Shown here: positions 1,357-62,510 of the stretch, in pieces
How positions within the stretch are numbered: the stretch's first letter is position 1
Layout: every line of letters begins with the position of its first letter
Source: Amphiscolops sp. MND2022
Taxonomy: Eukaryota
Assembly (NCBI GenBank): GCA_964187785.1
Contig: OZ076409.1
Location: 50,098,001-50,162,000, forward strand
Length of the DNA stretch: 64,000 nt
Reading direction: 5' to 3'
The notes under the pieces: generated by a model
Databases searched by the model: none
What the model saw: only the letters and a program-made list of their open reading frames with translations
What the model was told of the DNA's origin: nothing
Translations under genes and position numbers: made by a program

Positions 1357-2574
1357 AGCACCTCTCGTAGATACATGCCAAGTTTCAGGGTGACTGAATG
1401 AGTGGTTCGTCGAAACGGGGAAGGCCCAATTTGCCTCAGTCTCATTTCTGCAGAAACTTGTAATTTTCCAACTAAATCTCGACAAAATTTCAAAGCGTTT
1501 TGAGTTATAGGTTTAATCAGTCACGTTCCAATTTGAGTTTCTGAACTTGCCATTGACTGGCGCCAACACTACTCCTCCAACTACGTTGTCCATGTTACTT
1601 GCACAGGAAGGGGTGCAAACAGGGTGAGAATTTCAACTATCGTTTGCCAATGCGCCAAAAGTTCCTGACAGAGAGCGTGCAGAGCCTCGAGGTCAGTTTG
1701 ACAAGCTCTCATGACCCGGGAGCAAACAAGTATATTATCTTGTTAACAGAGCTTGTTAAGAAAGCTTGTTAACATTGCCATGATAGTGAGAGAAGTTACC
1801 TTTGCAAGTTTTGGCGTCAGTAGAATCCATTCATGATCAGAGCTTGACCCAAGGGACACAATGAGATGTTCTATGACAGAAAAGAAAAGACGCTATGATT
1901 CCTTTTGTGCATCAAAGAAGGTAATGACAACTCTTCAAATTGGGAAGGACACTGTACTCCGAAATGGCTGTAAGAACTTTTGTCAAGTAGCTGGACAGGT
2001 TAGGTAGGGTGCGCCACAGCATCAAACTAAGGCCAGTTTGATTGAGATGCACCCCATCATTTGGAAGTACTACTGTAGCTAGGCGGACCGCAGGATAACG
2101 TCTACCAGTTTGCATTTGGCATCGTCACTGCAAATACTCCCAAATTTTACTCTAGGAAGGTCAATTTGAGGCTTTAAGAGGCAGAGACAACTGAGTCGGG
2201 AAATCCGGGAAAATCGGGAAAAGGGACGCTGGCTGTACACAAATTTGACACTGTCAGCAACGTGGGTTGAGTCATTGCAGGGTAGACACGTCGAAACTCA
2301 TCTAAGAATGAGAGATACTCTACGCTGTACAAAGACGCCTCATTGTCTTGGAAGAATCCACGTAAATTGAAACTCGTAAATAACTGTTTGAAAGAGTAAG
2401 AATCTGTTCTTGTGGGTCACAAAGCATAATGTTTAAATCAAACGACCCGAGTCCTTTGGCGATATCAAAGAAGAATCTTTGCAGTCTGTGTGCATTACTG
2501 AACAAGTTGCTCATAAGAATACGTGCGTATCTCCCAAATTGTTCTAACTGTCAGAGTATCATTGTATCATATTC

Positions 2575-3240
2575 CGTTCGAATTGAATCTTAGTCGACGC
2601 AATACTGACGTAGATTCAAAATTTGGTTTGATTAGTTAAATTGCGACGTAGTGTTGACGTTGATTCATATTCTAGCTTCGATTAGTTTTACCGTAGTTGA
2701 ATAAAGCTTTTTCAAAATTTAATACTGACTGAAACGCGTAATTTTATAAATTTGGGAAGTAGAGTGGACGTAAATTTGGTATTAGACTTAGTCCTCCATT
2801 ATAGTGGACGTAGCGTGGACGTAAATGTGGTATTTTGGATGGATTAAAACAGCTATTTTGATGGATTTGCAACGTAACGTGAACGTACGTATTAGTCTTA
2901 GACTTAGTCCGCCGATATAGTGGACGTAGTGTGGACGTAAATTTGGAATGAAAATTAGCTAGCTGCCATAGCTGTGACGTCCTATCGTCGTCTGATTTGG
3001 AATACGTTCTAGCTAGTTGCCAAGTTAGACGAGATGCTGACGTCACATTTTGGAATGAACTTCTAGCTAGCTGCCAATGCAGTGACATAGTCGCGACGTG
3101 AATATGGAATGATTTCTAGCTAGCTGCAATAGCTGTGACGTAGCGTAGTCGCGACGCAAATTCAATCGTATTGGCGAAGCGGTGACCTAGATTAGTTTTA
3201 GTTTGTTTTAAATTCAATCCAGTCCGGGCGCGGACTGTGA
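2575..3240. repeat. Degenerate tandem array of ~55-60 bp units
   Basis: Recurring GTGGACGTAAATTTGG (~2764, ~2816, ~2931) and TGGAATGA..TTCTAGCTAGCTGCCA-like units (~2944, ~2998, ~3051, ~3105). Confidence 0.7.
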
Positions 3241-3242
3241 CA

Positions 3243-4830
3243 GTTACCTTTGCAAGTTCTGGCGTCAGTAGAATCCATTCATGATCAGAGCTTGACCCAA
3301 GGGACACAATGACATGTTCGATGACAGAAAAGAAAAGACGCTATGATTGCTTTTGTGCATCATGGAAGGTAATGACAATTCTTCAAATTGGGAAGGAAAC
3401 TGTACTCCGAAACGACTGTGAGAACTTTTGTCAAGTATCTTGACAGTTTGGTAGGTTGAGCCAGAGCAGCAAACTAAGTCCGGTTCGATTGAGATGTATC
3501 CCATCATCTGAAGTACTGCTGTAGCTAGGCGGACCGGGTCAACTGCTGTAGCCAGGTCAACCTAAGGAGAAAGAGTTCACCTAATGTTTTCCAAGAAGAA
3601 AGGAATACCTACTGACAGTCGTTCAATGCCCCAATTGAAGTCTGTGGTCAGAGCCTCTGGTTATTAACTATCACCCCAACGTCTCGCTAGAAAGTCCTGA
3701 GGCGGGAAATAACGCCAGTTTGGGAAGGAAGTGGCTAAGCATGGAAATTCGAATCTGCAATTGACTCTCGAATGAATGTAGAAGCCATATACTCTGTACC
3801 GGCAGGATACGTTTCGAAAAATGGAAACTTATCCCTGTTATCGACATATTCAACCTGTGAAAATCAAGGCAATTGAAGTTCTAATGTGAAAGGGGTAATC
3901 CTTTCCCATCTTGTCCACTGAAGTTTTGTACTGTTGCTTTGTTTATAGGATCGATGGTAGCTAGATGTTAATACCTCCATCTTCGATCATTTTAGAGGTG
4001 CTTCTCCGTCGATTGATGCCTTAGGATTTCGCGAGCATCTTTGACAGAAATAGAGACGTTAGAGAAATTGAAAGGGTTCCATCTCCGGTCTACTGGGTCA
4101 GAAACAAAAGTTTTTTTGGTCCACTACAATCCTCGAAAGTAAGCCCGCCTTCCTTATCTTGCATATCCCTGACACTCTCCAACGGATTCTGGTTCCTTTG
4201 TTAGCTGGCGTCTTACGAGTATTTTTTGCACGCGAAGAAGCTTATTCTTCCTTTAAAGCCTCCTCCTTGGCTTAATGCCAATGTTTGCATTCCCCGGCTG
4301 TCTGTGTTATAAGTGGCGGTTGCAGACTCAGGGGCTTCTGCACTGCAACTGGGTTCATTCGGTAGAGGTGGAGGAGCAAAACTTCACTCTTCTGAATGTT
4401 CGTACGAGTATCCGATACTTGCAAAGTCGTCATCACTTCTAAGGGCACCGCTTGTATCGCTGAAATATCCATGAGAAGCATCCTTCAAGGTTCTCCATCA
4501 TCTCGTAAGACGCTTTGGCCATCTGGTCAGCCACCACTCTCAAGATGCTGCCAATCTCTGTTTCATTGAGGGCTATAGTCAGGTGGCCTTTATAAAGGCA
4601 CAAAGCTTCTTCCTTTTGGAAGCACTGTTTGATTAATGCACGGCTGCTCAGGGCTAATGGATTAGCTCTCAGAAATGGCCTCCGCTCGATGAACGAAGAT
4701 TGATCGCCGCTGGATGATTCACGGAAACATTCGGGCACAATTTCCAAAAGCAAAGTGTTGACGTCTCCAATGGTAGATCCCCGAGGGTTTATTGACTCGA
4801 TATCTGTTTCGAAATCGCCTCCTGAATAAC
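3243..4830. repeat. Local segmental duplication; second copy is 5637-6025 joined to 24582-25840 once element A is removed
   Basis: Near-identical sequence, e.g. identical 69-aa ORFs at 4272-4481 and 25174-25383. The empty insertion site TCACCC-CAAC-GTCTCGC is at 3671-3687. Other partial copies: ~1610-2090 vs ~5475-5880, and ~2458-2565 vs ~4845-4948. Confidence 0.9.
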
Positions 4831-6025
4831 TCCTGAATAACCGCGATATCAGAAAAGAATCTTTGCAGTCTGTGTGCATTACTGAACAAGTTGCTCATGA
4901 GAATACGTGCGTATCTCCAAATTGTTCTAACTGTCAGAGTATCATTGTCAACGGACTCATTCTTCGTTCTAGTTCTGTCTCTTTCCACCTTTAATTTTGA
5001 CTCTCGGTCTAGTTTATGGCCCACCTTTGATCTGGGCAGAAAATTTGACACTGTCAATGCTTTCGCATCGGCTGAAACAAGTTCAACATTTGGTTGATAT
5101 TCAGTTTTTGCGGGTACATACTTGAGCCTTACACATTTTTGCCCAAGTTTGACAAAGTTCCCTATGAATTTGAATCCGGCGGTGGCGTTGGCCCTTCGAA
5201 CTCGTAGTGAAGCTGTTAGTTTCTAAATGAAACTAAGTTTGCAAGTTCCAGAAAAACGTTTAACCTAAAACGAACCAAAAGGAACTAATAGTCGCGGACA
5301 AGCCTGTTGAAGAGTTCCCCGTTGCTCTTCGCTCACAAAGAGTTCGTCACGATTGAGGGACCACTCGAGATTTTGATACTGCATTAGCGATTAGTTTTTA
5401 GACGAAGTAGGACCATGAGTCTTAGTAGCAAGAACAGTTCTAACCTTTCTTCTCACTCCATGCATCTCCTGAGTTGCAAACAGGGTGAGAAACTCAACTG
5501 TCTCCTCACAATGCGCCAAAAGGTCCTGACAGAGAGCGGGCAGATCCAGGAGGTCAGTTTGGCAAGTTGTCATGACCTGGGAGCAAACAAGTATATTATC
5601 AGAAAACTTGTTAACATTGCCATAATAGTGAGAGAAGTTACCTTTGCAAATTCTGAGATGTTCGATGACAGAAAAGAAAAGACGCTATGATTCCTGTTGT
5701 GCATCATAGAAGGTAATGACAATTCTTCAAATTGGGAAGGAAACTGTACTCCGAAATGGCTGTAAGAACTTTTGTCAAGTATCTTGACAAGTTGGTAGGT
5801 TGAGCCAGAGCAGCAAACTAAGTCCGGTTCGATTGAGATGTATCCCATCTTCTAGAAGTACTGCTGTACCTTGGTGGACCGGGTCAACTGCTGTAGCCAG
5901 GTCAACCTAAGGAAAAAGAGTTCACCTAATGTTTTCCAAGAAGAAAGGAATACCTACTGACAGTCGTTCAAAGTCCCAATTGAAGTCTGTGAACAGAGCC
6001 TCTGGTTATTAACTATCACCCCAAC

Positions 6026-6298
6026 TGTGCTGCTTTTTATAGTTGGTTTATTTGTTGGTGGTGGTGTTATTCAAAACTTACTAAAAAGCGGCTCAGAGAC
6101 AGACTAGCTAGCTAACTTTATTACAACCCGTTCGAGGTGGTAGAAGTAGAACAAAAAGGAAGTCAACCAAATACTGATTATTCGTTTTCTCTCTCTGAGG
6201 GAGTAGAGACTTACAGTCATTCAATAATAAATAAATGTTCAATCTAGAACATTCTATAAACATCTAAAAACTATTGGTTATTAATGTAGGTCAGTACA
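6026..6298 (-). repeat. Element A 3' LTR (273 bp)
   Basis: TGTGCTGC...CAGTACA; about 10 substitutions versus 24305-24577 by manual comparison. Confidence 0.97.
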
Positions 6299-6313
6299 TC
6301 CATCCCGGTTTTT
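6299..6313 (-). promoter_or_regulatory. Element A polypurine tract
   Basis: Minus strand AAAAACCGGGATGGA abuts the 3' LTR. Confidence 0.75.
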
Positions 6314-7307
6314 GAATAAAATAAAATTTTAAAGTAGCATCATTAATTAAAATGAAGAAAAAAATTTTGTTTATATGTTCTTAGCGTTTCAGCTAGTTAA
6401 CATTTTTCATTTGATGGATGATTGGCATAAGTCTCTTTAAGAGTGGTGTAAGTTCGACTCATTGGTGTACCTCGAATTGTCAAAATTTTGATTGACACCT
6501 CGTAGGTGCGACTACAGTTCAAAAAGCGACAAACTGTTCTTTTTCACTATGCTTTCGTCGGCTTGTTTTTTTGAACTGGTAGTTGCTCAATTTTATGCCT
6601 TTGTTTAAGTCTTTGAATGAACTTCGCAATTAACAAACGTGAGCAAACATCATACGACTTAAAGGTCAGAGAGTCATTAAAAAAAAGGAGAAAAATTTTT
6701 CAGGTAGTGATATCAGGTTGTGATCAACTTTGGCGGGTTTGTTATGTAACAAATGTTGAAAACTTTGAGAATTTGGATCTGTCATTATTCGAATCTGATT
6801 TGAACAGTGTGCTTGATCTATTTTTTTGAACTTGTTTTGTTGAAATGTTGAAAAGATTTGTGGTTAACATATGTGAATTTTGGATAGGATAGCACCGAAA
6901 AATAAAAATAATAATTATTCTTTAAAAAAATTGCAAATAAATATCGGTAAGGGTATGAATTAAATGATTTTGAGGGCAAATAAATATGGGTGGGAATGAA
7001 TTTTGAAATAAATACATCGGAAGTGTTTTCGATGTGAGTTTGAACTTTTTTAAATATTATCATGCACAATGTTTTTTCTTTAAGTTTCTTTTATAATTGA
7101 TTAATAATCATCTTCTTCGGATGAGAACTGGATGGCTGAAGATTGAAGATTGGATGAAGTTTGGATGAAGATGGGTCAGCTGTTGGGCGGCGGTGAAGTT
7201 GTGAAGAATGGGTGCTGAGTTGTGACGAGCAGTCGTTGTTGATGGAGTTTGGATTGGAATATGTGTTGTCATCTGAAGCGTGCTGTTGATGTCATCTGTT
7301 GATTTTA

Positions 7308-7868
7308 TCAAAAAGAGACGTAAGTGTACGTTTTGTATGAGGAATTATCATCTAGAAATGTTTCTGGAGGGTCTTTTTGAAATTCTTCTGTATCGTCGTT
7401 ATTGTCTGAAGGCCAATAGGAATCTAGGTTTTGTTTTTCCATTTCAGAACGCATTCTGTTAGATAGATTTCGTAATAAATGTTTGGGCTTGATGGTAGTA
7501 TGCTCTGTTTGGGTAGTGGCGTCTCGTTGGGTCGAATATGTATCAGGATGCTTATGAATTTGAAGATATTGATCAAAGTTGATTCGTGTAATTTGAAAGA
7601 TTTGAAACATATTGAGCAATATCAGTCTTGTAAGATGAGGATCTGCCTTTTGATCTGTTTTGAGCTGTGCATTTAATGTTGTTAAATGCTTTTTCAGAAT
7701 CAGGGATCGCAATCGGGCTGAAGGAATTGAGAGAAGAGGAGCTGTTGGGCAATCGATGTCACCAGAATGGAGTGTCGTCATATTGAAGAATATGAAGAAT
7801 TTGTTGAAAATTGTAGAGAATTTCGTTGGAATTCTTTTTGGATGGAGGGCTTGAGAGGAGAAAGACAT
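7308..7868 (-). CDS. Element A accessory ORF, unknown function
   Basis: 186-codon ORF in AT-rich DNA, same strand as pol and env; no recognisable motif. Confidence 0.5.
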   Translation of the reverse strand: MSFSSQALHPKRIPTKFSTIFNKFFIFFNMTTLHSGDIDCPTAPLLSIPSARLRSLILKKHLTTLNAQLKTDQKADPHLTRLILLNMFQIFQITRINFDQYLQIHKHPDTYSTQRDATTQTEHTTIKPKHLLRNLSNRMRSEMEKQNLDSYWPSDNNDDTEEFQKDPPETFLDDNSSYKTYTYVSF

Positions 7869-8488
7869 GCTGATGAAGCAGTTGTGACGGTATTCACCTA
7901 AAATAGATTAGTTTATTTACAATAAAGTTCCTTTTAAAATAGAGTTTTATAGTTGACATTTTTTGGATGTAATTTGTTATATTATAACATTTTAATTTTA
8001 AGAATTAAGTTGATGTATATTGGAAGTCATTTAAATATCTTTCATATAAGTACCTATTTGTTAAAATCGGTCCATTAAAAAGAGGAGCAATTGAGGAATT
8101 TTGTTAAAAATTTTTATGTCGCGATTGAAATTTTTAAATTATTTTATTTTAAAAGAGTATTTTTATATCAAACATGTAATAAAATCATGCATAGCAGGCA
8201 TATGCGTGTAGACTCAATTAATTTTGACAGGTTGTTAAGAGGATAAGTGATAAGTGTTAACAATTTAAAGTTATTATCCCATAATTACCAGTTAAGATCG
8301 GTGCATTTTTTCAATTGTATAGTTGAATTCGTCCAAAGATGTGCGAATACACAAAGCTGATTGGATAATTCTTGTCGTATCAAACACGATATTTTGTATT
8401 ATGCTTCGTGCTTGTTCAAGAGTATTTACGATTTCGGCGATTGTTATAAGAATATCTCGGTTCGGATGATGATAAGGTTTTATGATGT

Positions 8489-9583
8489 TCAAAATTTCTG
8501 TATATTTTTGTAATTCGTCCGTTGGGCGAAAATTTTGTGGTTGAGGAATGTCGCTTTTGGTTTTCTTTGGCGATCCTTGTTTTGTTTTTTTTTGTGTTCT
8601 TTAGTATTTCCGTTTGTAAGAAGTGAAAGTAAATGAGAAATAATGAAAATTAATTCATTATTTGAATATCCTTTTTTGGTCATTGCGTAAAAGTAAGATT
8701 TTTCACAGTCTCCCAGAGGTTGAGAGGCTATATGTTGAAATCGAGGGAGAAGATCAGATATATTTTGAGGTATATCTTCCTGTAGTAGCGAATCGTCGTT
8801 CAAAATGAGGTATTCTTGTGGTACAATGATTGGTCTTTTTGGATAATCATTTGGAAGGAAAGGAAACTTTGTTTAAGCGGGTCATAATTTCTAAGTTTTC
8901 CTTTTGTTTTGGTATGATCTATCAAATATTCTGACTTGAAAGTGAATGGCGACGTATTTGGAGTTGAAGAATATATAATTATCGGGCTCTTTGTATTGAA
9001 GAAACTTTTGATAAGTCATGTGATGAGCCTTTTTGATTTGGTATGGCAAAAAATTTGCATCATTTTCTTCAGTTCGAAGATCATATGGAGATGGTCTGAG
9101 AAAGTTGTATTGGAGTGAGAAAGTTTTCACTTTATTGTTCAACCACCAATCATATGGGGTAATCAATTTTGAAGCGATTGAAGTATGATAATCATTTTTA
9201 AATTCTCTGATGATGAATTTGTATTTTGTTGGAATCATGTATTACGAGGTTAACTGAGATTGAAAGGTAAATTGTTTTGATGAGAGAATAGGAACTAAAT
9301 CACAATCTCTATCTTCATCTTGTTTATTTGGTTTTATGAAAGGAGGGCAAGCGCCAGATTCCATAAAAGGTTTGTCTGCAGTTATATCTGGATACTTTCT
9401 TTTTTGAGATCTTGCGTTAACATGATCTATTTGTTCAATAGGAATAGCTTCCATGGGATCTTGAGAATTTGAAGATGAATTATTATCTTCGTTAACATTT
9501 TGTTGAATAGTTATATTCAAAGGGGATGCAAGCAATTCAGAAGGGTTAGAATTAACTACATCAAGTTCGGGCAAGGATTCCAT
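8489..9583 (-). pseudogene. Element A accessory ORF downstream of env, fragmented, unknown function
   Basis: ORFs 9242-9583 and 8891-9238 are in one frame separated by a single TAA. ORF 8489-8803 probably continues after a frameshift. Basic RSQKRK motif near the N-terminus. Confidence 0.55.
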
Positions 9584-10022
9584 TATTTAGACTTGCGTGT
9601 TTTGTAGAGCTAAAATAATGATTATAACGTTTGATTATACTGTTTCTAATAGTGAGGAAAAATTTCCTTATGTCTTTTCTGTCCATTAAATTGTTTGTTA
9701 AAAATGAAGTTTAAATTGTACTTACAGTATGAGAATAACTGAGTCAATTGTGGGTTGAAAACATCAACAATCACAGTGGTATCTATTCCAGGAATAGAAA
9801 CTTCTGTAATTTCGGTCTTTTAGATGGACTGAAGATCCAGTTGAAGTCTTCTGGTTGAGTGTTGAGTTGTGATGAGCAAGTGAATTTTCAGTTGAGTTGA
9901 AAGGAGAGACTTGTCCAAGTGCGAATTTGGGTTTGAATGAAAGTTAAACTAAAGAAAATTTTGTTAATAAATTTTTGAACTTTTTCTGAGGTTAATTTGT
10001 TCATTTAATTATTGCTTTTTAG

Positions 10023-12592
10023 CTATGAGGGATTTACTTTTATAAAGACTTTAGCAGGACTTTCCGGTACAGCTATTACATTTGGTAATACTGTGTCAGA
10101 GTCCTGAGAGTTAATATCGTTGACATTAGTTGGGTGTGTCTTTTGTGGTGATTGAAATGTTGAATTCTTACTGGAATAATTAGGAGGTAAATACGGGGAG
10201 TCATTATCAGAGTATCTTCTCAGTTTATTGTGTAATTCTTTTTCCGGCAATAGGATATTATCATTTTCGCTTGTTGTAATTTTGTGTTTAGTATATATCC
10301 GTTTTCGTTTTCCTGTTTTGTTCAAATCGGTTATCATTTCCGATGTAACTATATTTAAAATTCCATGAGCTATTGAACTCAAAATGGAAATGTTGCTTTG
10401 GAGATTATATTTTATGCTAATTGTTCTGTAGAATTTGAGTAAAAATGTTAAAACTTCTCTAATGAGAAGAAATGTTGAAAAGTAAATTCCACATTGTGTT
10501 AAAACAACATGGATATCCAAAGAATTTAATGAATGCTTGACTGAACCAGTCAGGGTTGAAAAGTGGTAAGACGTTTAACAAGTGGTCATGTATTCCAATC
10601 CTTAAATGAGTATAAGGATTGTATCCTGAGTAGGAATGTTTATCATTATGCACTGTGATGAAATCATAGCTTAATGATTTTCTAAGTAATTGAAGAGTTG
10701 TGTCTGAGTGTTTAGCGAAAAATACTCTGTTCCAGAATTGATCTATTTCTGCATTTGAATATATACCGGCATCTTGGGCGGTAAATGTACTAGGAGTGAT
10801 TGTTGTTTTAATTTGGGCAGGTTTAAACATTTGTGGTGCTTCTCGTTTGAGTGGTTCTGGTGTTAACACATAAAAATCTCCGTTGTTAGAATCTGGGTCT
10901 AATTCGATTATATTTTGTGGGGTATTTCCACATTCAATTGGTGTTGCATAGTTAAAAGTTTGTCTTGTTATAGGATCAACATACATTATAATTTCTCTAT
11001 AGTGTATGGGAATTCTATCAAAGCATTTATCTGCCTTGTATAGTGGTGATATAAAATGAGGGCAATCATACAGCCATGCTGTAGATGCTTCAACGTAGAG
11101 AAAGTTACTACGATTTCCAGTTAAAAGAAAACCGGCTAATTGAGGATTCTTAACTGACATAGCTAAGATTGTTAACAATTGAGTTCTTTCCAGTTCACAT
11201 ACTGTATGAAGGGTGTTTAGTTCTTGTACTGTCATGGATTTAAATACATGATTTATTGTGAAATCAATTTTTGTATTAATGTGGGCATCATAGTCTAAAG
11301 TGGCGAAATTGTTTGATATATTCAATGCAGGGAATATATACCTTTTATTTGAGTCATCATATTTTATGTTTCCACTAATTGTTTGATCAAATATTGAGTG
11401 TGGTTTTCGATGTCCTGTGTTCATATCAAAACCATCTAAGTATGTAACAAAGATGTCATCATATTGTGTTGAGAATAATGGTTCAGATTTTCCACAAAAG
11501 GTTTGTGCAATTGGGTATATATCAAATCGAGAAAGGCTTGGATTGCTTACTTTTGATTGTGGTGTTTTCACATTGGGATATCTTGTTCCTTGTATTCCTT
11601 CGGTTTGAAGTTTTTGTGTGATGTTTGAAGTTTCAATGAAGGTATCGGTTTCTATCCAATATTTATCTTTATTTCGTGTCATTCTACCAATGAATTCTTG
11701 AAGTTGAAATATGAGGCAAAATTTTTCATCAAACCATGTTAATGTGTATGGAGTTTTTGTGGTTGGTTTACAAAATCCGTCTGAATGATAGCACGGTAAT
11801 ACGTGTCCGTCATGTATCAATTGATTGTTTTATCATCATAGTCTATTGCGGTGTTAACAATTCTAAGTTTCCAACTTTGTCGGGTAATTAAATGTTCTCG
11901 GTCGGCTCGACATCTGGAGTATGTATTTTGTGTAACATTCAGTCGGAATAACTTTCATCGAATACGAAGGTTCCAATATGCCATGTGTTTAATTTCTTTA
12001 CTCTAAATGGTGTTTGAATTCGTTCAATTTTGTTTTGATAGTCACTATCGTCGAACAATGAGAAAGAGCTTTGTATATTGTAATTGTTTAATTCTTCGCT
12101 ATATGTCGCGTTTAAATATCTTATCATGTTTTTGCATTCAATAGGGTCTAATATTTTTGGAAGTTCTAATGTGTTTTGTCCCCATTGTAAACGATTATAT
12201 CGTCTACTAGAAGTGAATGTTTGTGAACACCAGACCTTCTCAGTCTTTATATATGCTTCGCATTTAAAGGCTTTTATTCCTTTGGCTTTTGCTCTAAAAT
12301 AAACTGTTGCTTGGGTTTTTGTGTGTTGTATATCTGAAGGTGCTTGTTTACATGGTTCAACATTTAATAAACTGGATTGTCTTAAGTTGTTTTGTTTTGC
12401 ACAATCATAATGGGATACCATTAAGTTTAAAATGTTGGGGTCTTGGTCTGAAATATGATTTTCTGAATTGGTTGTGTCAACTTTAGGAACAGTTGAAGGG
12501 TGAACTAAAGAGTGAACTATGTGTATTATAGATTTGTATTTAACAACATGTATTATGTATACTAGGTATAGGTTAAAGGTTATGTGATTCAT
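10023..12592 (-). pseudogene. env: env-like glycoprotein (~850 aa, frameshifted) resembling the chuvirus G / gB-like class III fusogen family
   Basis: Three consecutive ORFs (11939-12592, 10459-11820, 10023-10520). Hydrophobic N-terminus; Cys-patterned ectodomain (YDCAKQNNLRQSSLLNVEPC; KCEAYIKTEKVWC; HINTKIDF...VCELER...LAMSVKNP...WLYDC...KCFDRIPI...YVDPITR...IEC); C-terminal TM-like VLTQCGIYFSTFLLIREVLTFLL followed by a basic tail. Confidence 0.85.
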
Positions 12593-12599
12593 GGTTAAA

Positions 12600-15500
12600 A
12601 TAATGGTTGAAATGTTGTTCTATAATTAAGTCCTGAGTAGGGATTAAAGAAGTTTATATGTCCTGTTCTAATCTCAGGTAATTCTGCGTCACAGAGGTAA
12701 GAAATGGATGTGACTATGAATGGTGATGGGGTTGTTTTGTGTGCTACTCTTGTTGAAAGAGAAAATGGATGAGGTCCTAACGAATTGAATGTGACTTCTA
12801 CTTCAAATTTTAATATGATTTGTTGTTCTTGTAGTCTTCGTAATTCTCTTTGTTTTCTTTGATTTGAAAGTGAGCTATTGTTTATAAATCTTGCAGGTAA
12901 TACAGTGTATCGAGGGTCTTCGTTAAGACTACGAACAATTCTTGAATTAACACGGATAGGATATTCGTGAGGGTTTGGTGTTGGAGGTCTTGAAAAATCT
13001 TCTAAAAATATTCAGGTAGTTGTATATAAGAGTTTGATGTTATTGAACTAGGTGAATGAACTTGTGAAAAATTAGCTGCGCTATCTGATATAGTTATTGG
13101 GTCTTCAGAAAGAAGAGAAGCTGTTTCAAATCCTGATGTGATTTGAAATGGCAGTGATAAAGAAGATGGTATAGTGGGTTGAGATGAGGAAAGAGAAGGA
13201 GTGTCTAATCTGGGTTGGGCTTGCTGTCTAACTAGTCTTGAGTTTTTACTTGAACTAGTTAAAGATTGTAATTCCTGAGAATTTCTTCGTTGTTGAGATC
13301 TAAGGTTATAATTATGTCTTGGTACTCTAGTACTGGCAGTTGAGTCAGAATCTTTATCTTTGTGATATGAATCTGTTAAAGATGAGGTAGTAGTTGAATG
13401 TACACATTCTAATTCAAGTTTGGGATATATTTGAGAAAATGTGAATAAACTTAGTTCAGATGGTGATGGAATTGGGTGTTGTTGTAATTTCTTCACTGGT
13501 GCCTTTATTGAAGTTTCTGGTAAGAATATTATTGGAGTATAACTTGTTGATGGTAAGTTGGGGTTTTGTGGTAGTTTGGGTGGAGTATGACTTGTTGATG
13601 GTAGGTTAAGGTCTTGTGGTAATGTAGGTAAAGAAGTTTTTCTTTTTGTTTTAGTTGTTGGTATTTTATGTGGACAAGAATTTATGTATTGCAGAACTGA
13701 GCTGGGGTCAGGGATATAAACGGAACGAGTGGTAGTAATTAGTGGAAGAGGAGGTCTTTTTAAAATACTTGAAGTATCTTGTGTAGTTGGTGTTGTAAGT
13801 GTTTCATCATTAGAGTCAGTAACTGGTGAACTTGTTTCTGAAAATACTAAATTTTGTGAAATAGGTTGTGGTTGAGTTGTTATTACTGATGTTTGAGTCA
13901 GGGATATAGGTGTATTGGTGGGTGTTGCTGGTACTCTATCAGGAGTATATGGAGCGGATGGACTGGGGTTTGAGGATGAGAATCCAGTATGTCTGCATCT
14001 GAGTTTAAATATGCTGTATATTCAGGTAATGTTTGGAGTGAATGTGTTGAACTAGAAGATGAATTATTTGTGGTTGATGATGGTGAATGAGTATGTCTAT
14101 CAATTTTGAAATCTTTTGTGTTGTGGTAGTTTGCTTCAAATTGTAAGTTAGTTAGTTCTATATTAATTATAGTTTCTTTCTTTTATTATCACTTGTGAAA
14201 AAAATTTTTTTTTGATTCAATTTCACATTAGGTTTCAAACTTTCTTTCTTTCTTTCAAATTTTCTTTCTTTCTGTATTTCAGCAGGATTTTTGAGAAAGT
14301 GAAATTATATCCTTTTCACCAAGGAAAAAACGATAGTCTTTTCTTGGTTGTGGGCGGAAATTGTATATATTATAGGAGTGTCTTCGGGGGTTAATAAAAT
14401 TATCATAGTCATGAATGTCTGATTGGTTATCTGAGTTGGTATTTTTAGAATCTTGTTCTTTTTCTTGGTACGGAAATGAAGAATATTGGCTAAATGATTC
14501 CGGTTGGAAGTCGATTGTGGATGGTATATCCGTTTCTTTATTAAATTTTGTGGAAGAAAATTGATCTTCGTCACTGAATTGGTCTTCATCGGAGTCAAAA
14601 GATTTTATTCGATCGTTTATATTCGAATAATTATCATTGAGTAAATGAGGATTATACTGTTGTAGGAAAGGAAAAAAATAATTGGTTCTTTTGGATAAAA
14701 AGGAACTAAATGATTTCTGTGTATGTGAGATGTGTAACCATCTTGATTAACAATTTCATATGTTATATCGGAAGTTTTGTTAATAATTTTGAATGGTCCA
14801 ATTCTGAGAGGTTTTTATTTGTCAGAAAAATGAACATGGAGAAAATTTCTTTTTAGTACAAACGTACCAATTTCCAAGGGTCTCGGATTGTGGTATGTTT
14901 TGTTAAAAAAAGCGTAAGAGTTAATTTTTCTTTTTGTGTTTTCATATACTGTGTGGTATGTTTGTATCATAGCAGTTTCAATGGCTAAGATCCATTGTGG
15001 GATCGGTTTAGATAAAATTTTATGGAAGAAGGGGTTTAGATTTGATTTGTCATAGTGTGTATGAAGTGGTAATTCTTGACAATTTTGGGAAGTACAATTT
15101 CTATATGTATCTCTTTGGAGATTGAGTTCAAAATTGATTGGAATTCTGGGTATAGTATGAATTACTATTTCATATGGAGATAAGTTTATTTCAGAAAGTG
15201 GTTGTGAATTATGTGCATAAGCATACATATGAACTCGAGTAGACCAGTTTCTGGAGTGATATGTAAGAAAAGTCTGATTTGAGTTCCAATATTTCTGTTT
15301 TGATTTTCAACTAAACCATTAGTCCATGGTGCATAAGGAGTTTTCGGTGAATGTCTAATTCCCATTAAAGTACAAAGGTTTGCGAATTCGGAATTAATAT
15401 ACTCTGATCCACGGTCGGTAACTAGGTATACAGGAGGTCCAAATTTTGTTATCCAATGATGTAGTAAGGAGTTAACAGCGTTCTGAGCATTATTTTGTTT

Positions 15501-18500
15501 TATAGGTACTGTTACTACAAAGTGACTAAATTGTCTACTATAACATGAATGTATGAGTTTTGATTTGATGGTGGGTTTATATGTCCTTTTGTATCCATTG
15601 ATATTCGGTAGTTGAAATATGAAGCATTTTCTGAAAATGTTTGTATGGATGCAGTTTGTATTTTTTGGTTAATATGTTTATTTTGTTGACATTCAATACA
15701 ATCATGGATGAATATTGACATCCATTTATTCAAATATGGTATGAAGTAAAATTGCTGAAAAGCTTTGATGGATATTTTTATTCCTGAGTGTCAATGAGCG
15801 TGAAGTTTGTTAAAAGCTGCATGGAAGAGTTTAAATGGTAAACATATTTTGTCTCTTTGATTCGGGTTTGAATCGTGAATATTAGGATAATCTATGTGAG
15901 TAAGTTTTGTATCATGGTTAATATACAATTGGTTGAAACTTTTGTAATATAATAATGAGAAAGAATTTGCTGCAATTGTTGGGTCTATTTGTAAGGGTCT
16001 TTCATTATCAAGTACCCATTGGTAAACTTTTTGTAAAACAGTGTCTTGTTCTTGTTGAGTTTTTATTGTTTCAATTGTTCTTTGTGTATCTTCTGGTAGG
16101 AAGAAATAATTAAAATATCTTTTGTATTTGAAGAAAGATGGATCAAAAAATGGAACTTGTTGATTACAATAATCGGATTTGGTAGGATATTGTATAGCAA
16201 GTGTGTGTTCTTTTAATATGTCTGAGTTTTGATGTTGGATATTATTTGATTGAGTTATTTCATCGTCATCACTGAGAATATCAGTATCATTAAGAATTGT
16301 CGATTGTTGTAAGAGAGATTTTGTTTGGTTTTTTGTAGGTTTTTTATATTTTGATTCAAATGGAACAATAGATTGAAAAGAGAAAGAATCTAAAGGTTTT
16401 ATGTGGATATCTTCTCCTTTCTTACTTATACGGATAGAGAATTGGTCGTCTTCGTAGTCAGCAAGAATAGGATGGCAATCATTCTTTTGATTATATTTGA
16501 TTTCTTCATGTTTTACTAAATAGTGTACTGGTTTGAGTTGATTATCTTTCATGATAGAGAAATCTATTTGAGGTGGTAATTGTTTGTGTCGTAATTGATG
16601 TACCTGTAATTGTTCTTTTGTAAAAGTTCGTGAAAGCATATCTGCTCCAGTTAAGTTTTTTCCAGGGGTATGAATGATTTTCAGTTTGGAGAATTTGGTT
16701 AATTGCATTTGTGCTCTATGGAATCTAGGAATAAGATTTCCTTTCTTTGCAAAACAATGTAGTAGAGGTTTGTGATCTGTGAATATGTATATGGGAAGAG
16801 GAGATCCAATGATCAAAATTTCATATATTTGTAATGCGTAAACTATTGCGAGAAGTTCTCTGTCTAAAGTTGAAATTTTTTGTTCTTGAGTGTTAAGAAT
16901 TCTGGAGTTATAAGAGATTACTTTCATTTTGTTTTCTTCGTTCATTTGGAAAAAGACTGTGCCTAAACCAACTAACGGAGCGTCTACTGTTATGAAAAAT
17001 GGATGCGTTGTATTGGGTATGGTTAATTCAGTGTCTGCTGTCATTGCATTTTTTACATTTTGAAATGTTTTTTCTAATTCAGGTGTCCATTGGAATTTAA
17101 CATCATCATGTAGTAATGTATACAATGGTTTAAGGTTTATATGGAGTTTTTCAATGAATTTTGAATAGAAGTTAACACTGCCAAGAAATTGCATAACATT
17201 TTTTTTTCTTTTGGTGATGGAATTCTTTTAATGGCGTCAATTTTGGATGGAATTGGTTTGATTGTGTTATTACCAATTTCGTGTCCAAGGAATTTTACTT
17301 TGAGTAACATGTAGAATGATTTTTCGGGTGCAAGTTTGAGATCTTCTCGAGATGCTATTTTATGTAATTCTATTATAAGTTCAAACATTTCTTGTTTTTC
17401 ATTTGCGAGTAGTAAAATATCATCTATATACACTAACGCAGAACGTTTGTCTATAAGTGGTCTAAAGAAAGTTGACATTTGTTTTGTGAAAAAATTTGGA
17501 AGTCCCTTTAATCCGTAAAATCCACGGATAAAGGCGTATAGTTTGTCACAGGATGAAAGTCCTGTAAGTTTGATAGTTTCTTCGTCTAATGGTGTATGAG
17601 CATAGGTATACATTAAATCAATAGTTGATTTATATTTTTTATTGGCTCTAGCTAATTGAGGAGCTAAAAGTTCAATAGGCCAAGATTCAAGTTCTTGGTT
17701 GGTGTTTGAGTTTAATTGTCTTGCGTCTAAGACAACTTTTATTGCGTCTCCTTTGGGGATAATAACTAAAGGGTTTAAAAATGTTGTTCCAATTGTGTGT
17801 TTTTCATCTGAGGTGGAACCAATTTGTTTTATTTTATTGTATTTTTCGAGTTCTAGTAAAAGTTTATTTAGTCTATCTCTGTAGTGAATTGGTACTTTAG
17901 AAGGTCTTTGTGTTTGAAGTTTACAGTTATCTTTTATTCTAATTCGAAAGGGGTAGAAATTTTTCCTACGTCGTTCTTATGTTTGGCGTAACAATTTTGA
18001 TTATCAATCAAAGTATTGCAGAGGTTTACATATTTTGTATCGAGTAAATCTGAGTATTCAAAGTTAAACTTTTTTTTGACTTGTTGGTTTTCTGTAGAAT
18101 ATGGTAATGGAGGAAAATCTTTTCGAATTTTATCTGAGGGTCGAAGATTTCCAGTAACAGAAGGTATAGGAAGTTGAAGTGTTTTGTCATTGATTTCTAT
18201 TTTGTTAATTTCTAATAGGGATTGTGGTATTACCCTAGTACATAAGTTCATACCTGCATATGGATTTTGTTTAATTGGAGTTGTGGTATCAGGATGATAC
18301 GCAGGTATTACAGAGTGAATAAGTGAGTTTATATCATTAACTCTATAGTGAGGAGGAGTTGTTTGAGTAATAGGGATTTCTATGTACCCAATGATTCCTC
18401 GTGGTAATGTAGCTGGGTAAGATGTAAAGTTTTGAATTATTGTTGCACAAGAGTCTTTGCTTTTTTCATTGACTATAATATGCAAGAAATGAAAGAAATC

Positions 18501-19160
18501 TTTATATTTTTGTAAGAAAAATGTATAAGGGTTTGTTGGATAAAATTTTGTATTATCTTCAAGTTCAAAATGTAGATTTGAATAGTTTTTAATTGGGAAA
18601 TGTATGGTTTTTCCTGACCTTGGTTTAAAGTGAATTGGTTCTTTACATTTAATAGTATAGATGTAAGAAATATATGGGTAATCTTTTTCTGTAAATGTGG
18701 AAAATGTTTTTGTTGAAAGCTTTGGATGTTGTTCTATATAAGTCATAATATTTTGTTGAAAATCGATATTTTGGATGTGTTTATTGAAAAAGGGTGTCCC
18801 AAGAATGTTGTATTTGATATTGGCTACGGTGAAATCGATATTGAAGGATCGCGTTTGATAGTTTACTTCAGTAAAACAGGTCATCGAAATGTAGTGTATT
18901 ATTGGTTCTTCAGTTTGGTTAGCAACTGTAAGAGTTTTGGCTCTTTTGTTTTCAAGATTGGTTGGAACATTGATGTTTAATTGTTTGGAAATTACTTGAA
19001 ATGTTGGTAAATTCAAAACAGATTTGGATGCTCCAGTATCTAAGAGGAATAAGATTTCTAATTTTGAAGGTAATATAATATCATTTGTTTCAGAAGCATG
19101 AACATATAGTGGGTAAAACCAACTATAAGGAGTAATTGTATTAGCGATTGAGTTATTTGT
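12600..19160 (-). pseudogene. pol: Element A pol (PR-RT-RNaseH-IN plus long Ser/Thr/Pro-rich tail), multiple stops and frameshifts
   Basis: LLDTGAS at ~19025-19050; YIDDILL in ORF 17137-17613; RNase H TVDAPLVGLG, RELLAI, FTDHKPL in 15791-17194; IN CIEC, MDTKG, TDRG, GLVE; GPF motif at ~14795. Confidence 0.95.
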
Positions 19161-22100
19161 CAGGTGTGGATTTCAAATTTTGTACTATCTTTGTCTTTTG
19201 TAGATTTAACGTCTACTTGATTTATTCTATTTTGTTGTCTGTTTTGTGAGGGTGTTCTAGATCGTGATCTAAAATCTCTAGGTCTTGATGGAGATCTATA
19301 AGGATAATTATATCGTTTAAAGGAGTTTCCTTGTGATTGAGAACGGGATCTATATCTTGAGCGAGAGTTATATCTGTAATTTGAGTTATTTCTGTATGGA
19401 GATCTATATGGAGATCTAGATGGAGTTCTTCGTTGATAATAATTATCAAATCGAGATCTACTATGGACTTCGAGATCGATTGTAATATCTTTGTCGAGAA
19501 TTTGATCTATAGTTGTTTCGCGAATATTCTCTACTATTGCCACGATATCTATCATTATTTCTGTATCTATCGTTATAGTAATTTTGATTATATTTGTTAT
19601 GATCGTTATCTGAGGAGTAAGTTTTTGTATTGTCATTTCGAGTTTCTTGTGAGTCATTAGGTTTACTGCAAAAATATTGTACAAAAGATTGTTGAGGAGT
19701 TCGTGATCTTTGGTTTTTGTATTTTTGGTATTCATCATCACGTTGTTTTTGATAACAGTTTGAAATACCATGATTATTTTTGTGACAATAGGAACAATAT
19801 TTTTTATAAGCTGGTTTGCTTTTGTTATTTGGGTCTCCAGATTGAGTAACCTTTATAGGACCTTCTTGTTCAAATTCTCTTTTGTTTGTATCAAGCGATA
19901 CTTTGTTTTTTTTCTAGAGCTAAGTCGTTAGTTCTAATTTTTTCATTAGCAATGTCTTCAGAATCGACATGTCTAACAAGTGTGTGAAATGGTATTGAAG
20001 GTTCAAGTAATGTCGATACATGTTTAACTTGTCGTTTAAGAGCAAAATTTTCCAGTTTTTTGGGTAATCCTTTTGTAAAGATTTCATTATTTTTGAGTTT
20101 TATGGTAGCTGCATTTTCATTGCACCATCCCTTTTTAACTAATTGTTGTACTCTAAGGGCGAAGTGGCGTACTGTTTCATTATCTTTTTTCATGAGTGAC
20201 ATAGCTTCTACCTGGGCGTAGTAAGCTGTTTTTTGAGATGAAAATTGTTTTTTGAATAATTGTACAAAGGAGTTCCATTGTTGTTTATATGATATATGAA
20301 GGTTAGTATACCAATCGAGAGCTGTTCCAGTTAAAGAACATTGTATGTAAGCCATGCGTCTATTATGCCAGGATTTGTATTTTTTGGATTATTCTGAGGT
20401 TCTTCACCTATGGCGAAGGTTAATCTAGCTTCGACTTGTTGTAGATATTCTTCTGGAGTATAAGAATGGTCTAAACCATCAAAAGGTTTCATAGGTTCTG
20501 GTATTGAAGCGGACATGTTCATAAAGGTATCTTGTGGTATTGGTAAGTATTGGAGTGGAGGAGCTACTTGATGTGTGAGTTGAGGAGGTTAATGTTGAGT
20601 TGTATTTTGTGGTAATGGATTTGGATTTGGATTAGGATCAGAATTTGTACTTGGATGCATTTGATATAAAGGATCAATTGGTATATGTGTAAGTAGAGGG
20701 TTTTGAAGTCTTCTTTGAGAAGATTGTGTGGTATGAGAATAAGAAGTTGAAGGATACGAAGTTCCTTGATTTTGAGAATATATATTATTCTGTGAGGTAC
20801 TGGTTTGTGATAAATGTATGAAAGGGTTTTGTGTTGTTGAATTCGTATCAAATTGAGAGTGATTTTGGTTGATATTTGTATTAGTAATTGTATTTGATGT
20901 AGGAGAAAAGTTATAATTGAATGGATCGTAATATTGATTGGAAGTTTGTGGATTATCATTACGATTATTGTTTGAATAAATCGATCTATCTGAGGGGAAA
21001 GCAGAACGAATTGATGGAGGATCGTATCTAGGTCGAGTAATATATCTTGTAGAATCAGGAATAGTTCTTGTTGGAGATGCAACGTTAACAGAAGTATTCT
21101 GAGCATGAGATGTGGTTAGAATATCTTCATGTAATGTATTATGAGTTTCGTCGTGTGTTGTTTCATCTGTGTGTGGAAGGTTGAAAGTTATATTACGGTT
21201 TGGAGATGCATCTAAGTAAGATTGAGGATTATGTGTATTTTTTCTTTGATTTACAACTCTAGTTGGAATTCCAAAGGATTGAGTGTGTGTTGATGTTGAT
21301 GTTCCGGCTTGTGATGCATTTTGTGTTGAAATTGTAGATTCTTGAGTAGTAAACTCACTTGCATTGTTTTCAATGGTCTGATTATTATCAATATAGTTTT
21401 CATTTTGATTTTTTTGTTGGAGTGTATTTTCATTATTGGTATTATCATCCTCAGTATAGTTATTAGTGTTAAAATTTAGGTTTTGTTGAACTTGAGATTT
21501 TTGCTCATAGTGATAAGGTCTATTGTCTGCAACTAGATCATTTTCTGTAATTAATAGAGGATGAAAACGTATGTAATCTAAAGTTTGTTTTGTAATTAGT
21601 TGTGGTTTATGGAAATAAGGCTGTTCATTTTGTTCACTGATGATGAATGGTAAGCTTTCGTCAGCTGTAAAATGATTTGGAAATGCTGTAAAAGCAGGTT
21701 GATCTTGTTGTGACCATAATAGTTGATAATTGAATCTGAAGTATTTTCTGAGAAATAGAGATATTACTTCGATCTGAAGAATTGTTTGGTAATTTAATGT
21801 TAAGTCTTTGTAATGGTAGAGGAAATTTTGTATTCGTAATATATCAGTTTGTAACCAATGATGAGGATTGTCTTCAGGATTAACTAATTTTTCAATACTT
21901 TCTACTTCGAAATTACTTATGTATCGTTCAAGTTCGTCAAGTGCATTTGGACTAAACTTTGGGGTTTCAAGTGCTATGTTGTGGTCTTTCACATGGTTTA
22001 AAAAAGCATAAAAAACTTGTTTAATAGGAACGTGGAGGTTTATTGGATTTATTGTTCTTCTGTATATATGAGATGAATTAGGTCTTTGTTGAGGAAAGGA

Positions 22101-22349
22101 GATTTGAAAAGCTGGGTATTCTGTAGTGATGGTTAGAACTTTGTATCTAATATAGAAGAGGTATGTGTCCAAATGTTCTCTAATAAGAGGTATTGTTTCA
22201 ATTGTATGAGGTTCATTTTCCAATGGAAGTGGTTGTGTATATTGGGAAATAATGTTTTGTATGAATGGGTTTAGTTCTAATTTTACAACTTGTGCATTTT
22301 TAATGACGGGAGTTTGAAAAGGTAGGGGGGTTGTTGTTGAGAAGTTCAT
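19160..22349 (-). pseudogene. gag: Element A gag with long N-terminal extension and RS-rich C-terminus
   Basis: ORF 20589-22349 is in frame with 20331-20522 across one stop. Capsid-like MKPFDG...SLTGTALDWY...FKKQFSS; zinc knuckle CSYCHKNNHGISNC at ~19757-19798; RSRSR/RSP repeats in 19160-19460. Confidence 0.9.
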
Positions 22350-23729
22350 TTTTAGATTTTATCTCTTATCACTGTAAGTATTTTTCAAAGAGGATACTAA
22401 ATAGAAATAAGACACAAAATGTGTATGTTGTAATGAGCACTACTGTGGTAACTTTTTCCCACATGTTATAATATGAAGGTTGAAACGTTGAAAATAATTT
22501 TTAATATAGATCCTTTTAAGTTGGAGCTCTTGGGTAATATCTTTGTTGATTTATGATGAAGAAAAAAAATTGTTGATATTGTTCAATTAATCTTTCAAAA
22601 TCGTCTGATGTATGGTTTTGAAGTGAGCTAATTGGTTGTAAAAGAAAGTGTGAAGAAGCAGGTGTTACAAAAGGAATGTAAAAATTTAAAAAGTGAACTG
22701 TTTGGTTGTATACGTTAGAGTTCATATAATTTGTGTTCTAACAAGAATTTGAAGTTATTTGGGAGGTTAATAGTTTTGGATAGAGAAGAAAAAAGCGGAT
22801 GCAATAGAATCTGGATTCAACCTCAAAGGAATGCTAACAGAAACTAAGTGTGATTTTAAATCTGGATCACTTTAAAGTGTCTAACATAAGGTTATTGACA
22901 CGTCCAGAAAAGCTAAGGTTGTTTTAATTTTAAGTGGGTTGTGTGTTTTAAGACTAAGAGAGTGGAGCTCTGAACAATCAACGTCCACTTTCCAAAGTGT
23001 GATCAATACTGATCAAGATCAAAGTTTGATCTTTGTCTCTTTTACTTTTACTTTTACTTCCTGAGAATTTTGAAGATTCGAACGTAGTTCGGTGTCCTCT
23101 CGATTCTCCCCAAAGACGTTTACATTTAACTAAGGTTTTTAGTCAGCCTTAGAATCAGAATCAGCTGGTGAAGCTGTCTGATTGTCTAAGTCTTACGGGA
23201 GGGGATAGGAATTGTGGGTGCCTGAACGTAGATAACTACCTTTACAGTGTTCGTGATACTTACATGCCTTATTTTAGGTTTTAGGGCAAAAGAGTTGTGG
23301 GAATTGTATGTGGTAATTTGTCAAAATAATTGTTTTGTAGGATTATGTTAAAATTATTGCTGTTGAAAGAATTAGATATAAAGTTAAGTGTAGATTGTGT
23401 TGTTATTTTTCTTGTGTTGTTTAAGTTTCTTGAAATTATTTGTGTTGTTTGTCGACAATTGGAAAAGAAATGGAATAGGGCGTGGTTGCTTTTTGTAGAT
23501 AGTCTTGGTTGCCTTTTTTTGTATTCAGTGTCTATTTTTGAAAACTATTTTGTAGAAATTTTTTGTAGAAAATGGATCCGAAACGTAACAGTAGAAAAAC
23601 CAGGTTTTCTGCCAACACGAAGTTGATCTTGAGACGTATGTGCTTATAGGTGAGCGGAGCTGGACATGCACTCAGTCAAATATTACACCAGGAGTCCACC
23701 TGACGTTCAAGATAGCAAGATTGAAGAAA

Positions 23730-24063
23730 GTTGCTATGTCAAAGGTGTTAGAAAACCTTGATAAACCAGACAAATGTTGCTGTGTCAAAGGTGTTAGAAA
23801 ACCTTGATAAACCAGACAAACATCAAAAAACTGTTTCAACAAGCTTCCGGATTAGCTGTGATAAATCAGTATAGAGAACAGAACTGTGTCACGTGTGGAT
23901 AAATCAGTCTGGAAAGAGAAGAGAAACAGAACTGTGTCACAAAGGATAAATCAGTCTGAAATGAAACCGTTTCGACGTGTTAGAAAACGTGATAAACTGG
24001 TATAGCAAGAAGAGCAGAAAGAAGAACCGTGTCAACGTATTAGAAAACGTGATAAACCGGTAT
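23730..24063. repeat. Tandem repeat array in the 5' UTR of element A
   Basis: 46-bp unit duplicated at 23730-23820, followed by two more diverged pairs; about seven units share a GATAAA core. Confidence 0.85.
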
Positions 24064-24289
24064 TGAAGAAAATTTGTGATATTTGAATTGATTGTTGTAG
24101 TGGAGAAATTGTATGTCTAACGATGATGTATTTAGTGATGAAATTCCGAAAGTCACAGACTAAATTTTCAAGAAATTCTAGAAAGATTTCACTGCAATTC
24201 CAGAGAATTTCAAAGATGGAGAGGGGTATTTGTATTATTTATTATTGAGAGAAGAGAAATCATTCAGGAGAGAAAGGCAAGAAAGTTTA

Positions 24290-24301
24290 CAAGTCGCACC
24301 A
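24290..24301 (-). promoter_or_regulatory. Element A primer-binding site
   Basis: TGGTGCGACTTG begins 3 nt inside the 5' LTR boundary; primer tRNA not assigned. Confidence 0.8.
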
Positions 24302-24304
24302 AAT

Positions 24305-24577
24305 TGTGCTGCTTTTTATAGTTGGTTTATTTGATGGTGGTGGTGTTATTCACAACTTACTAAAAAGCGGCTAAGAGACAGGCTAGCTAGCTAACTTTAT
24401 TACAACTAGTTCGAGGTGGTAGAAGTAGAACAAAAAGGAAGTCAACCAAATACTGATTATTAGTTTTCTCTCTCTGAGGGAGTAGAGACTTACAGTCATT
24501 CAATAATAAATAAATGTACATTCTAGAACATTCTATAAACATCTAAATACTATTGGTTATTAATGTAGGTCAGTACA
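24305..24577 (-). repeat. Element A 5' LTR (273 bp)
   Basis: Direct repeat of 6026-6298, followed by TSD CAAC. Confidence 0.97.
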
Positions 24578-24581
24578 CAAC

Positions 24582-28076: not shown

Positions 28077-28088
28077 CTCCCCCTCTTT
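28077..28088 (-). promoter_or_regulatory. Element B polypurine tract
   Basis: Plus-strand CTCCCCCTCTTT (minus AAAGAGGGGGAG) abuts the 3' LTR. Confidence 0.9.
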
Positions 28089-43796: not shown

Positions 43797-44076
43797 CCTG
43801 GTCGCTCACGGGGACTGCGTGGTATGAGGAAATACATTTGATTCAATAAAAGAGTATATTAGATTCAAACTCCTCGAACATACCCAACTGGAGGGTGAGA
43901 CATACCACACCCGATTACGCCGCAGAAATGCATTCCAAGCCGGAATGCTTGCAGGATTGTTTGTAATGATCTCGAAGGGAATGTGGCAGACTGCCGGCTG
44001 CGGTGGTAACTACTACAGAGTGCCGCCAAAAAACATCAGTGATTTTTGTCTACCTCCCTGCGTCCTACCCTTGTAA

Positions 44077-44791: not shown

Positions 44792-44799
44792 TCCTCTCC
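44792..44799 (-). promoter_or_regulatory. Element C polypurine tract
   Basis: Minus strand GGAGAGGA abuts the 3' LTR. Confidence 0.7.
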
Positions 44800-62494: not shown

Positions 62495-62510
62495 TAAAAA
62501 CTACTCTAGA

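Follow-up and report, generated by a model that had tools for sequence, protein, structure and literature searches.

Envelope (env) genes of the herpesvirus glycoprotein B (gB) type are known from Ty3/gypsy retroelements of many phyla. In the survey of Chary & Hayashi (eLife 2026; PMC13524379), they were found on 221 of 1,512 Ty3/gypsy elements, and the association was argued to be ancient. The bait of this survey was in part the chuvirus-like glycoprotein of mosquito BEL/Pao elements, and its automatic prefilter admitted gaps of no more than 1 kb and spans of no more than 10 kb, elements of non-insects being extended by hand (PMC13524379). Mosquito BEL/Pao elements with a Chuviridae-like glycoprotein were described by Dezordi et al. 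2020 (cited in PMC13524379). Env-mediated transmission is regarded as elusive outside Drosophila (PMC13524379). The main text of the survey, as far as it was available to us, contains no mention of accessory or matrix proteins, non-AUG or leaky initiation, late domains, ESCRT or budding, and acoel names are absent from the available text and supplements (PMC13524379).

The element described here lies in a 64,000-nucleotide stretch of DNA from Amphiscolops sp. MND2022, referred to below as the window. Among the mitochondrial codes tried on cox1, table 5 gave the highest score (458.8 bits), with tables 13 and 21 less than 1.5 bits away and tables 9, 24 and 4 scoring lower, as expected for an invertebrate. 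It belongs to the known group of Ty3/gypsy elements with gB-type env: a Gypsy gag-pol, a gB-type env and multiple copies, as in the HSV/gB-type errantiviruses of Chary & Hayashi, are all present. The original prediction, made from the window alone, had contrasted the chuvirus-like env with the F-like env of insect errantivirus Gypsy elements and had inferred an independent capture. Neither the novelty of this pairing nor a restriction of Gypsy elements to env genes of the F type is supported: gB/chuvirus-like env genes on Ty3/gypsy elements across phyla have already been published (PMC13524379). Within this group, the element is distinguished by three extra genes under selection, by one of these (ORF X) being AUG-poor and probably CUG-started, and by late-domain-like motifs located outside Gag. 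Our joint reading, to which we assign a probability of roughly 0.55, is that of a decayed 18.5-kb Ty3/Gypsy element with a predicted class III env of the gB/chuvirus type, an X gene started at CUG, an env reached by leaky scanning, and budding that depends on X and the Env tail.

Anatomy, class and copies of the element

The window copy displays the hallmarks of Ty3/Gypsy (Metaviridae) elements, with two long terminal repeats (LTRs), a target-site duplication (TSD), a primer-binding site, and a polypurine tract that is short and imperfect. The features of the element are the following:

6026–24577, minus strand: whole element, LTR to LTR, 18,552 nt
24578–24581: TSD (CAAC), right copy; the flanks rejoin as a repeat also found at 3510–3907
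6022–6025: TSD (CAAC), left copy
24305–24577, minus strand: 5' LTR, TG...CA, 273 nt; ~96% identity to the 3' LTR (10 mismatches)
6026–6298, minus strand: 3' LTR, 273 nt
24293–24301, minus strand: primer-binding site TGGTGCGAC; the other families checked carry the same site 3' of their LTR
6299–6312, minus strand: polypurine-tract position AAAACCGGGATGGA, short and imperfect
14279–22349, minus strand: gag-pol, frameshifted in the window copy; domains assigned by Pfam and motifs
12595–13987, minus strand: ORF X, frameshifted near 13970 and 13005; candidate CUG start at 13987–13985
10023–12592, minus strand: env, with the ATG at 12592, the stop at 10023 and three frameshifts
8292–9583, minus strand: ORF4, broken in the window copy; ~435–495 aa in natural copies
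7308–7781, minus strand: ORF5; ~150–300 aa in natural copies

CCCGG-containing tracts similar to the polypurine tract of the window copy occur in other families of the element. The window copy is dead, as env, gag-pol, ORF X and ORF4 are all broken, and natural unbroken ORFs from elsewhere in the same genome were analyzed in its place. The element is inserted into another repeat (1614–6025 plus 24578–26026), which is present in two to three copies within the window and contains, on the minus strand, a frame of 246 codons that belongs to no known family. The 5' leader (22350–24292, ∼2 kb) contains short tandem copies near 23727–24060. Two further Gypsy elements are located on the minus strand of the window. 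One of them (44076–62809, ∼18.7 kb) has a gag-pol frame of 2,107 codons, preceded by an ORF of 464 codons and followed by ORFs of 616, 900 and 586 codons, and these extra ORFs had no Pfam match under E 0.08. The other (27036–41820, ∼14.8 kb) contains plus-strand frames of 203–248 codons at 30285–32823, between pol and the LTR. At 2756–3180, imperfect repeats with short units containing GACGT recur at a spacing of ∼160 nt.

The gag-pol gene, which some natural copies retain as one frame of ∼2,650 codons, encodes in order a long N-terminal extension, a capsid, a CCHC knuckle, a protease (called from its DTG motif alone), a reverse transcriptase (RT) with YIDD, an RNase H, and an integrase with GPF. 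Pfam families PF03732, PF17917, PF17919, PF17921 and PF00665 scored over the cut-off, and PF00078 also matched; matches to PF19259, PF24626 and PF22938 fell under the cut-off. The best PDB match of the RT is the Ty3 RT (7.5e-16), followed by 8r0s, which we take to be a caulimovirus-type polyprotein, and then by foamy viruses. In an RT tree of 11 rows without named reference clades, from which one row lacking the RT motif had been dropped, the element and the RTs of the window's two other Gypsy elements grouped together, apart from three BEL/Pao RTs of the same genome (100/100), the latter representing the three of eight BEL loci that yielded an RT window. The element RT gave no blastp match to these BEL/Pao RT windows at E≤10, and PF05380 (Peptidase_A17) was not found on the element pol in the Pfam scan. 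Judged by its sequence, the pol is of the Ty3/Gypsy type and not BEL/Pao. This agrees with the original prediction, which an RT grouping with BEL/Pao would have contradicted, although two of the markers it relied on are not specific to Gypsy. The BEL/Pao RTs of the same genome carry YVDD, so that YxDD cannot serve as a Gypsy marker, and an RNase H located before the integrase is common to Gypsy and BEL/Pao.

BEL/Pao elements are abundant in this genome, with 6,212 first-look candidates for PF05380, of which at least 150 were scored. The N-terminal extension of Gag (∼600 aa, 20589–22349) has no Pfam match. An overlapping +1 frame of 200–250 codons in gag was considered as a gene and rejected, since codon make-up explains it (P(no stop) 0.08–0.56). 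A Y-[NK]-[LF]-R motif at the integrase end (14279–14400 in the window) is present in five of five loci and recurs in ORF X.

With the window env as query, at least 110 matches at ≥93% identity were scored from 9,126 first-look candidates, and a stop-free frame of at least 861 codons was counted by hand in about 55 of the 110. Three further env types, 55–63% identical to the window type, each gave at least 50 scored matches with 90–100% identity to their own query. All these copy counts are lower bounds. Element length varies between 17.7 and 18.8 kb across copies. The LTR pairs of six copies from the three further env families are 99–100% identical over the aligned stretches, and the near identity of these pairs indicates a recent expansion of the element group. 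The gene order gag-pol, ORF X, env, ORF4, ORF5 is the same in all five sub-lineages examined, which represent three deep lineages. In close pairs, dN/dS is 0.10–0.18 for X, 0.07–0.12 for env, 0.06–0.19 for ORF4, and 0.10 and 0.29 for ORF5, whereas deep pairs are saturated (0.2–0.6 or no value). Close pairs show purifying selection on ORF X, ORF4 and ORF5. ORF5 is kept within lineages but barely alignable across them.

The envelope gene and its predicted fold

The env ORF of ∼850 codons, which the original prediction placed after pol, exists as an 856-aa ORF with pol upstream in natural copies from the same genome, whereas the env of the window copy is split over four frames by frameshifts near 11940, 11830 and 10505. 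The natural env contains 16 Cys residues; its N-terminus is mildly hydrophobic, and a hydrophobic segment at ∼704–724 is followed by a tail of ∼134 aa, in line with the hydrophobic N-terminus, Cys-patterned ectodomain, transmembrane segment and tail that had been described. The expected motif pattern is also recognizable (YDC...SLLNVEPC, C..WC, NTKIDF, CELERTQ and the C-terminal Cys/Pro region), except that the spacing is x9 and not x8. Two N-terminal pieces of the window env match PF24664 (Monjiviricetes_fusion) with E-values of 1e-18 (above the cut-off) and 4e-5 (below it); its C-terminal piece had no match in the Pfam scan. The natural env scores 88.5 bits on PF24664, compared to a cut-off of 27, and 0.96 to PF24664 clusters in the ESM Atlas, with low recognition.

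An AF2 model of the env (residues 50–750, 49 sequences, pLDDT 74.9, pTM 0.54) was compared with known and predicted structures using Foldseek. Every PDB entry listed is a herpesvirus gB (best E 1e-12, TM ∼0.3). In BFVD, the G proteins of Tacheng tick virus 4 and other chu-like viruses come out on top (E 2e-28), with TM-scores of 0.4–0.5 and 13–16% identity in the top rows. The Foldseek probability is 1.0 for both gB and chuvirus G, with low TM-scores of 0.3–0.5, and no F-type or class II fusion protein is among the PDB and BFVD matches listed. The env is predicted to be a class III fusion glycoprotein with a gB/chuvirus-G-like multi-domain fold and a long central helix. The class III, Chuviridae-type assignment of the original prediction is supported in this respect, with gB on top in PDB and chuvirus G on top in BFVD; a best match outside class III, which would have spoken against it, was not obtained.

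In the collection searched, the env has 2,097 relatives at E≤0.001. The nearest proteins outside the family, among those listed, are unnamed glycoproteins at ∼26–37% identity, and none of the ten looked up carries a name. The BFVD matches also take in xinmo-, qin- and rhabdo-like as well as nyavirus proteins, at 9–16% identity in the structural alignments. Because the matches to PF24664 and in BFVD span several virus groups, no viral donor of the env can be named.

ORF X, its candidate start and the motifs of X and the Env tail

A coding insert of 1.3–1.7 kb separates pol from env and holds ORF X, an open frame of 410–446 codons. The X frames of six loci, 2,557 codons in all, encode no Met. 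Considering all frames, ATG is the most depleted of the 64 triplets in X (9 observed, 47 expected); the out-of-frame ATGs number 9, compared to 24 expected from a synonymous shuffle or 41.5 from a codon-order shuffle. ATG depletion was absent from all 16 control ORFs. Composition explains part of this scarcity, as the synonymous shuffle is significant (p<0.05) in only three of the six X loci (0.07, 0.11 and 0.42 in the others) and the Gag extension is likewise poor in Met (11 in 2,400 codons). X retains between zero and five out-of-frame ATGs (uORFs of 1–17 aa), one of them in good context, and a single X copy among the loci fetched later contains a Met. The X loci represent only three deep lineages, and their counts are thus not independent.

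The sequence A-n-n-CTG-G, a strong start context, is found at the start of X in 18 of 18 loci whose X frame is unbroken, a set that left out broken copies, and conservation begins near it. It is present at 13987 in the window copy and in 11 of 13 loci fetched later, the exceptions being one locus without the 5' part and one that has lost the site. Among 253 Leu codons, only 8 are CTG. An in-frame stop is located 6–8 codons upstream of the CTG in two sub-lineages, with no AG in between, and pol ends 60–370 nt before the X frame opens; splicing or frameshifting into the 5' end of X is therefore excluded in these two sub-lineages. In the window lineage, the open and conserved stretch extends a further ∼50 codons upstream of the CTG, and so the start of X may differ there. 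Pyrimidine-rich AG sites 3' of the pol stop were identified by eye in four of five sub-lineages. The AUG-poor frame and its conserved CTG suggest that translation of X begins at a CUG and that env is reached by leaky scanning. X combines both features of the type seen in RTBV, a (candidate) near-cognate start and an AUG-poor upstream ORF, and RTBV provides a precedent for AUG-free leaky scanning (PMC5902531).

X is composed of a P/S/T-rich arm with conserved islands, followed by a 140-aa domain that is predicted to be folded (pLDDT 70.6) and whose model has no fold match. The known late domains fall into three classes, PT/SAP, YPXnL and PPxY (PMC8402826). LYP.L is present in six of seven X proteins (chance 1–2%), with IYPKL in the seventh; PSAP is present in four of the seven and absent from one deep lineage (chance 4–5%), and YNLR in all seven (chance 0.4%). 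All six env tails contain PPxY. PSAP and LYPxL are absent from Gag (four of four), while PPHY occurs in two of the four Gags. Distant env relatives were also considered, of which 27 were taken and 25 had a scorable tail. P[ST]AP is found in 6 of these 25 tails (0.18 expected), strict LYPxL in 2 (0.03 expected), and the relaxed xYPxL, a pattern chosen post hoc, in 10 (0.39 expected), with no PSAP/LYPxL-like motif in the ectodomains of these proteins. Since late-domain-like motifs occur in X, in the env tails and in the distant env tails, we read X as a probable budding adaptor made together with Env. These motifs, with a Gag that lacks PSAP and LYPxL, suggest ESCRT-dependent budding through X and Env, and their recurrence in distant tails suggests that envelope-borne late domains, and with them envelope-driven budding, may be general across this glycoprotein family. 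The selection on env and the late-domain-like motifs lend indirect support to the possible infectivity raised in the original prediction.

We infer from these sequence features a subgenomic RNA that would span both X and env. A minority of ribosomes would initiate at the CUG and produce X, while the remainder would scan ∼1.3 kb further to env. X and the Env tail would then recruit the host ESCRT budding machinery, leading to the release of enveloped particles and their entry into cells. For the origin of the X-env RNA, an internal promoter as in Tor elements is equally possible (PMC4402516). More tentatively, at somewhat short of even odds, the element may represent a complex retrovirus-like lineage of invertebrate Gypsy elements, with a class III env, a CUG-made budding adaptor whose place on the env mRNA would fix the X:Env ratio, two accessory genes, and ESCRT signals split between X and Env instead of residing in Gag.

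ORF4 and X have no match in Pfam or among PDB sequences. A Pfam scan of seven ORF4 members gave nothing under E 0.1, the best PDB E-value was 0.11, the ESM Atlas yielded no usable match, and ORF4 had no match in a metagenome scan. Homologue searches returned only unnamed ENA proteins among the best 120 of 646 for X and the best 120 of 324 for ORF4. ORF5 belongs to no known family by Pfam scan. The gene order in chuviruses is G-N, and a chuvirus nucleoprotein was considered for ORF4, for which no support was found. Going by their position, one might guess that ORF4 and ORF5 are accessory regulators as in complex retroviruses.

The role of X could be a different one even if the CUG start and leaky scanning hold. 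X might be a nuclear accessory protein, acting as a chromatin tether or a regulator of element RNA, which we consider unlikely. The invariant YNLR resembles the chromatin-binding GGYNLRP of PFV Gag (PMC6021111), a similar motif is found at the integrase end, and for Cer1 an accessory protein of the Rev type, CERV, is reported (PMC10309623). However, LYPxL is as conserved as YNLR, PSAP/LYPxL-like motifs are enriched in distant env tails but missing from the ectodomains, and co-translation with env fits a role in assembly. The two roles are not exclusive: MLV p12, which also tethers to chromatin, performs both (PMC6021111).

Slightly less probable again is an arrangement in which X and env are on separate mRNAs, generated by splicing or an internal promoter, or in which env is reached by reinitiation, the scarcity of AUG having some other cause. 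A separate env mRNA has a parallel in Oikopleura Tor3b/4b, where env is expressed from an internal promoter (PMC4402516), but it would provide no reason to purge AUG from three frames over 1.2–1.3 kb; the weak depletion at some loci under the stricter null is a point for another cause. Reinitiation is compatible with the lineage in which the X stop and the env ATG are immediately adjacent, and in its simple form fits poorly with another lineage, in which env begins ∼55 nt inside X in a different frame. It appears improbable that, as envisaged in the original prediction, a new retrovirus-like lineage was founded by the recent and independent capture of a chuvirus G. Chuvirus G proteins do provide the best structural matches among viruses, and the four env proteins from families of this genome form one clade (SH-aLRT 100 in a quick tree). 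Against this, the listed distant relatives are far closer to the env than any named virus, the matches are spread over several virus groups, and the pairing of Gypsy with gB-type env is published as widespread and ancient (PMC13524379). The shared X-env mRNA with a CUG-started X remains our preferred reading.

Comparison with known systems

To the question of how gB-type errantiviruses assemble and exit cells, the element contributes testable predictions: a gene that starts at CUG, an mRNA common to X and env, and motifs of the TSG101/ALIX/NEDD4 type in both X and the tail of Env. If the proposed start is correct, gene finders that require an ATG would miss the beginning of ORF X. Accessory-gene complexity, usually tied to complex retroviruses, is encountered here in a Gypsy lineage whose expansion continues.

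The translation proposed for X and env is similar to that of RTBV and badnaviruses, where the first ORF has a near-cognate start and a long AUG-poor stretch precedes the downstream gene (PMC5902531). The likeness is one of working only: RTBV is a plant pararetrovirus with an AUU start and a stretch of ∼900 nt on its pregenomic RNA, compared to a candidate CUG and ∼1.3 kb before env here (PMC5902531). The Oikopleura Tor elements are likewise invertebrate and Gypsy-type, and express env from a subgenomic RNA, as is proposed for our element; no upstream CUG ORF is found in the available description of Tor (PMC4402516). X resembles MLV p12 and viral matrix proteins in its disordered arm with PSAP-, LYPxL- and PPxY-type motifs, except that the motifs here are located in a separate gene and the Env tail and not in Gag (PMC6021111, PMC8402826); X matches these proteins neither in sequence nor in fold. 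The giant Gypsy element Burro of planarians and the foamy-like ERVs of fish are also large, high-copy and env-bearing, with extra ORFs, and compared to them 18.5 kb is no size record (PMC6431247). The env of Burro lies in frame between gag and pol within one polyprotein, unlike the arrangement here (PMC6431247).

In a limited literature collection, we did not find the layout gag-pol, X, env, ORF4, ORF5 in print, nor, for gB-type elements, a CUG-started AUG-poor gene before env or late-domain-like motifs outside Gag. The mosquito BEL/Pao elements share the same broad type of glycoprotein, which is combined here with a Gypsy pol instead (cited in PMC13524379). The elements of Chary & Hayashi remain the nearest, in that a Gypsy pol is followed by a gB-like class III env, related to the chuvirus-like glycoprotein of mosquito BEL/Pao elements, in multi-copy families; unlike them, the element described here extends over ∼18 kb, with ORF X separating env from pol and two further ORFs downstream of env (PMC13524379).
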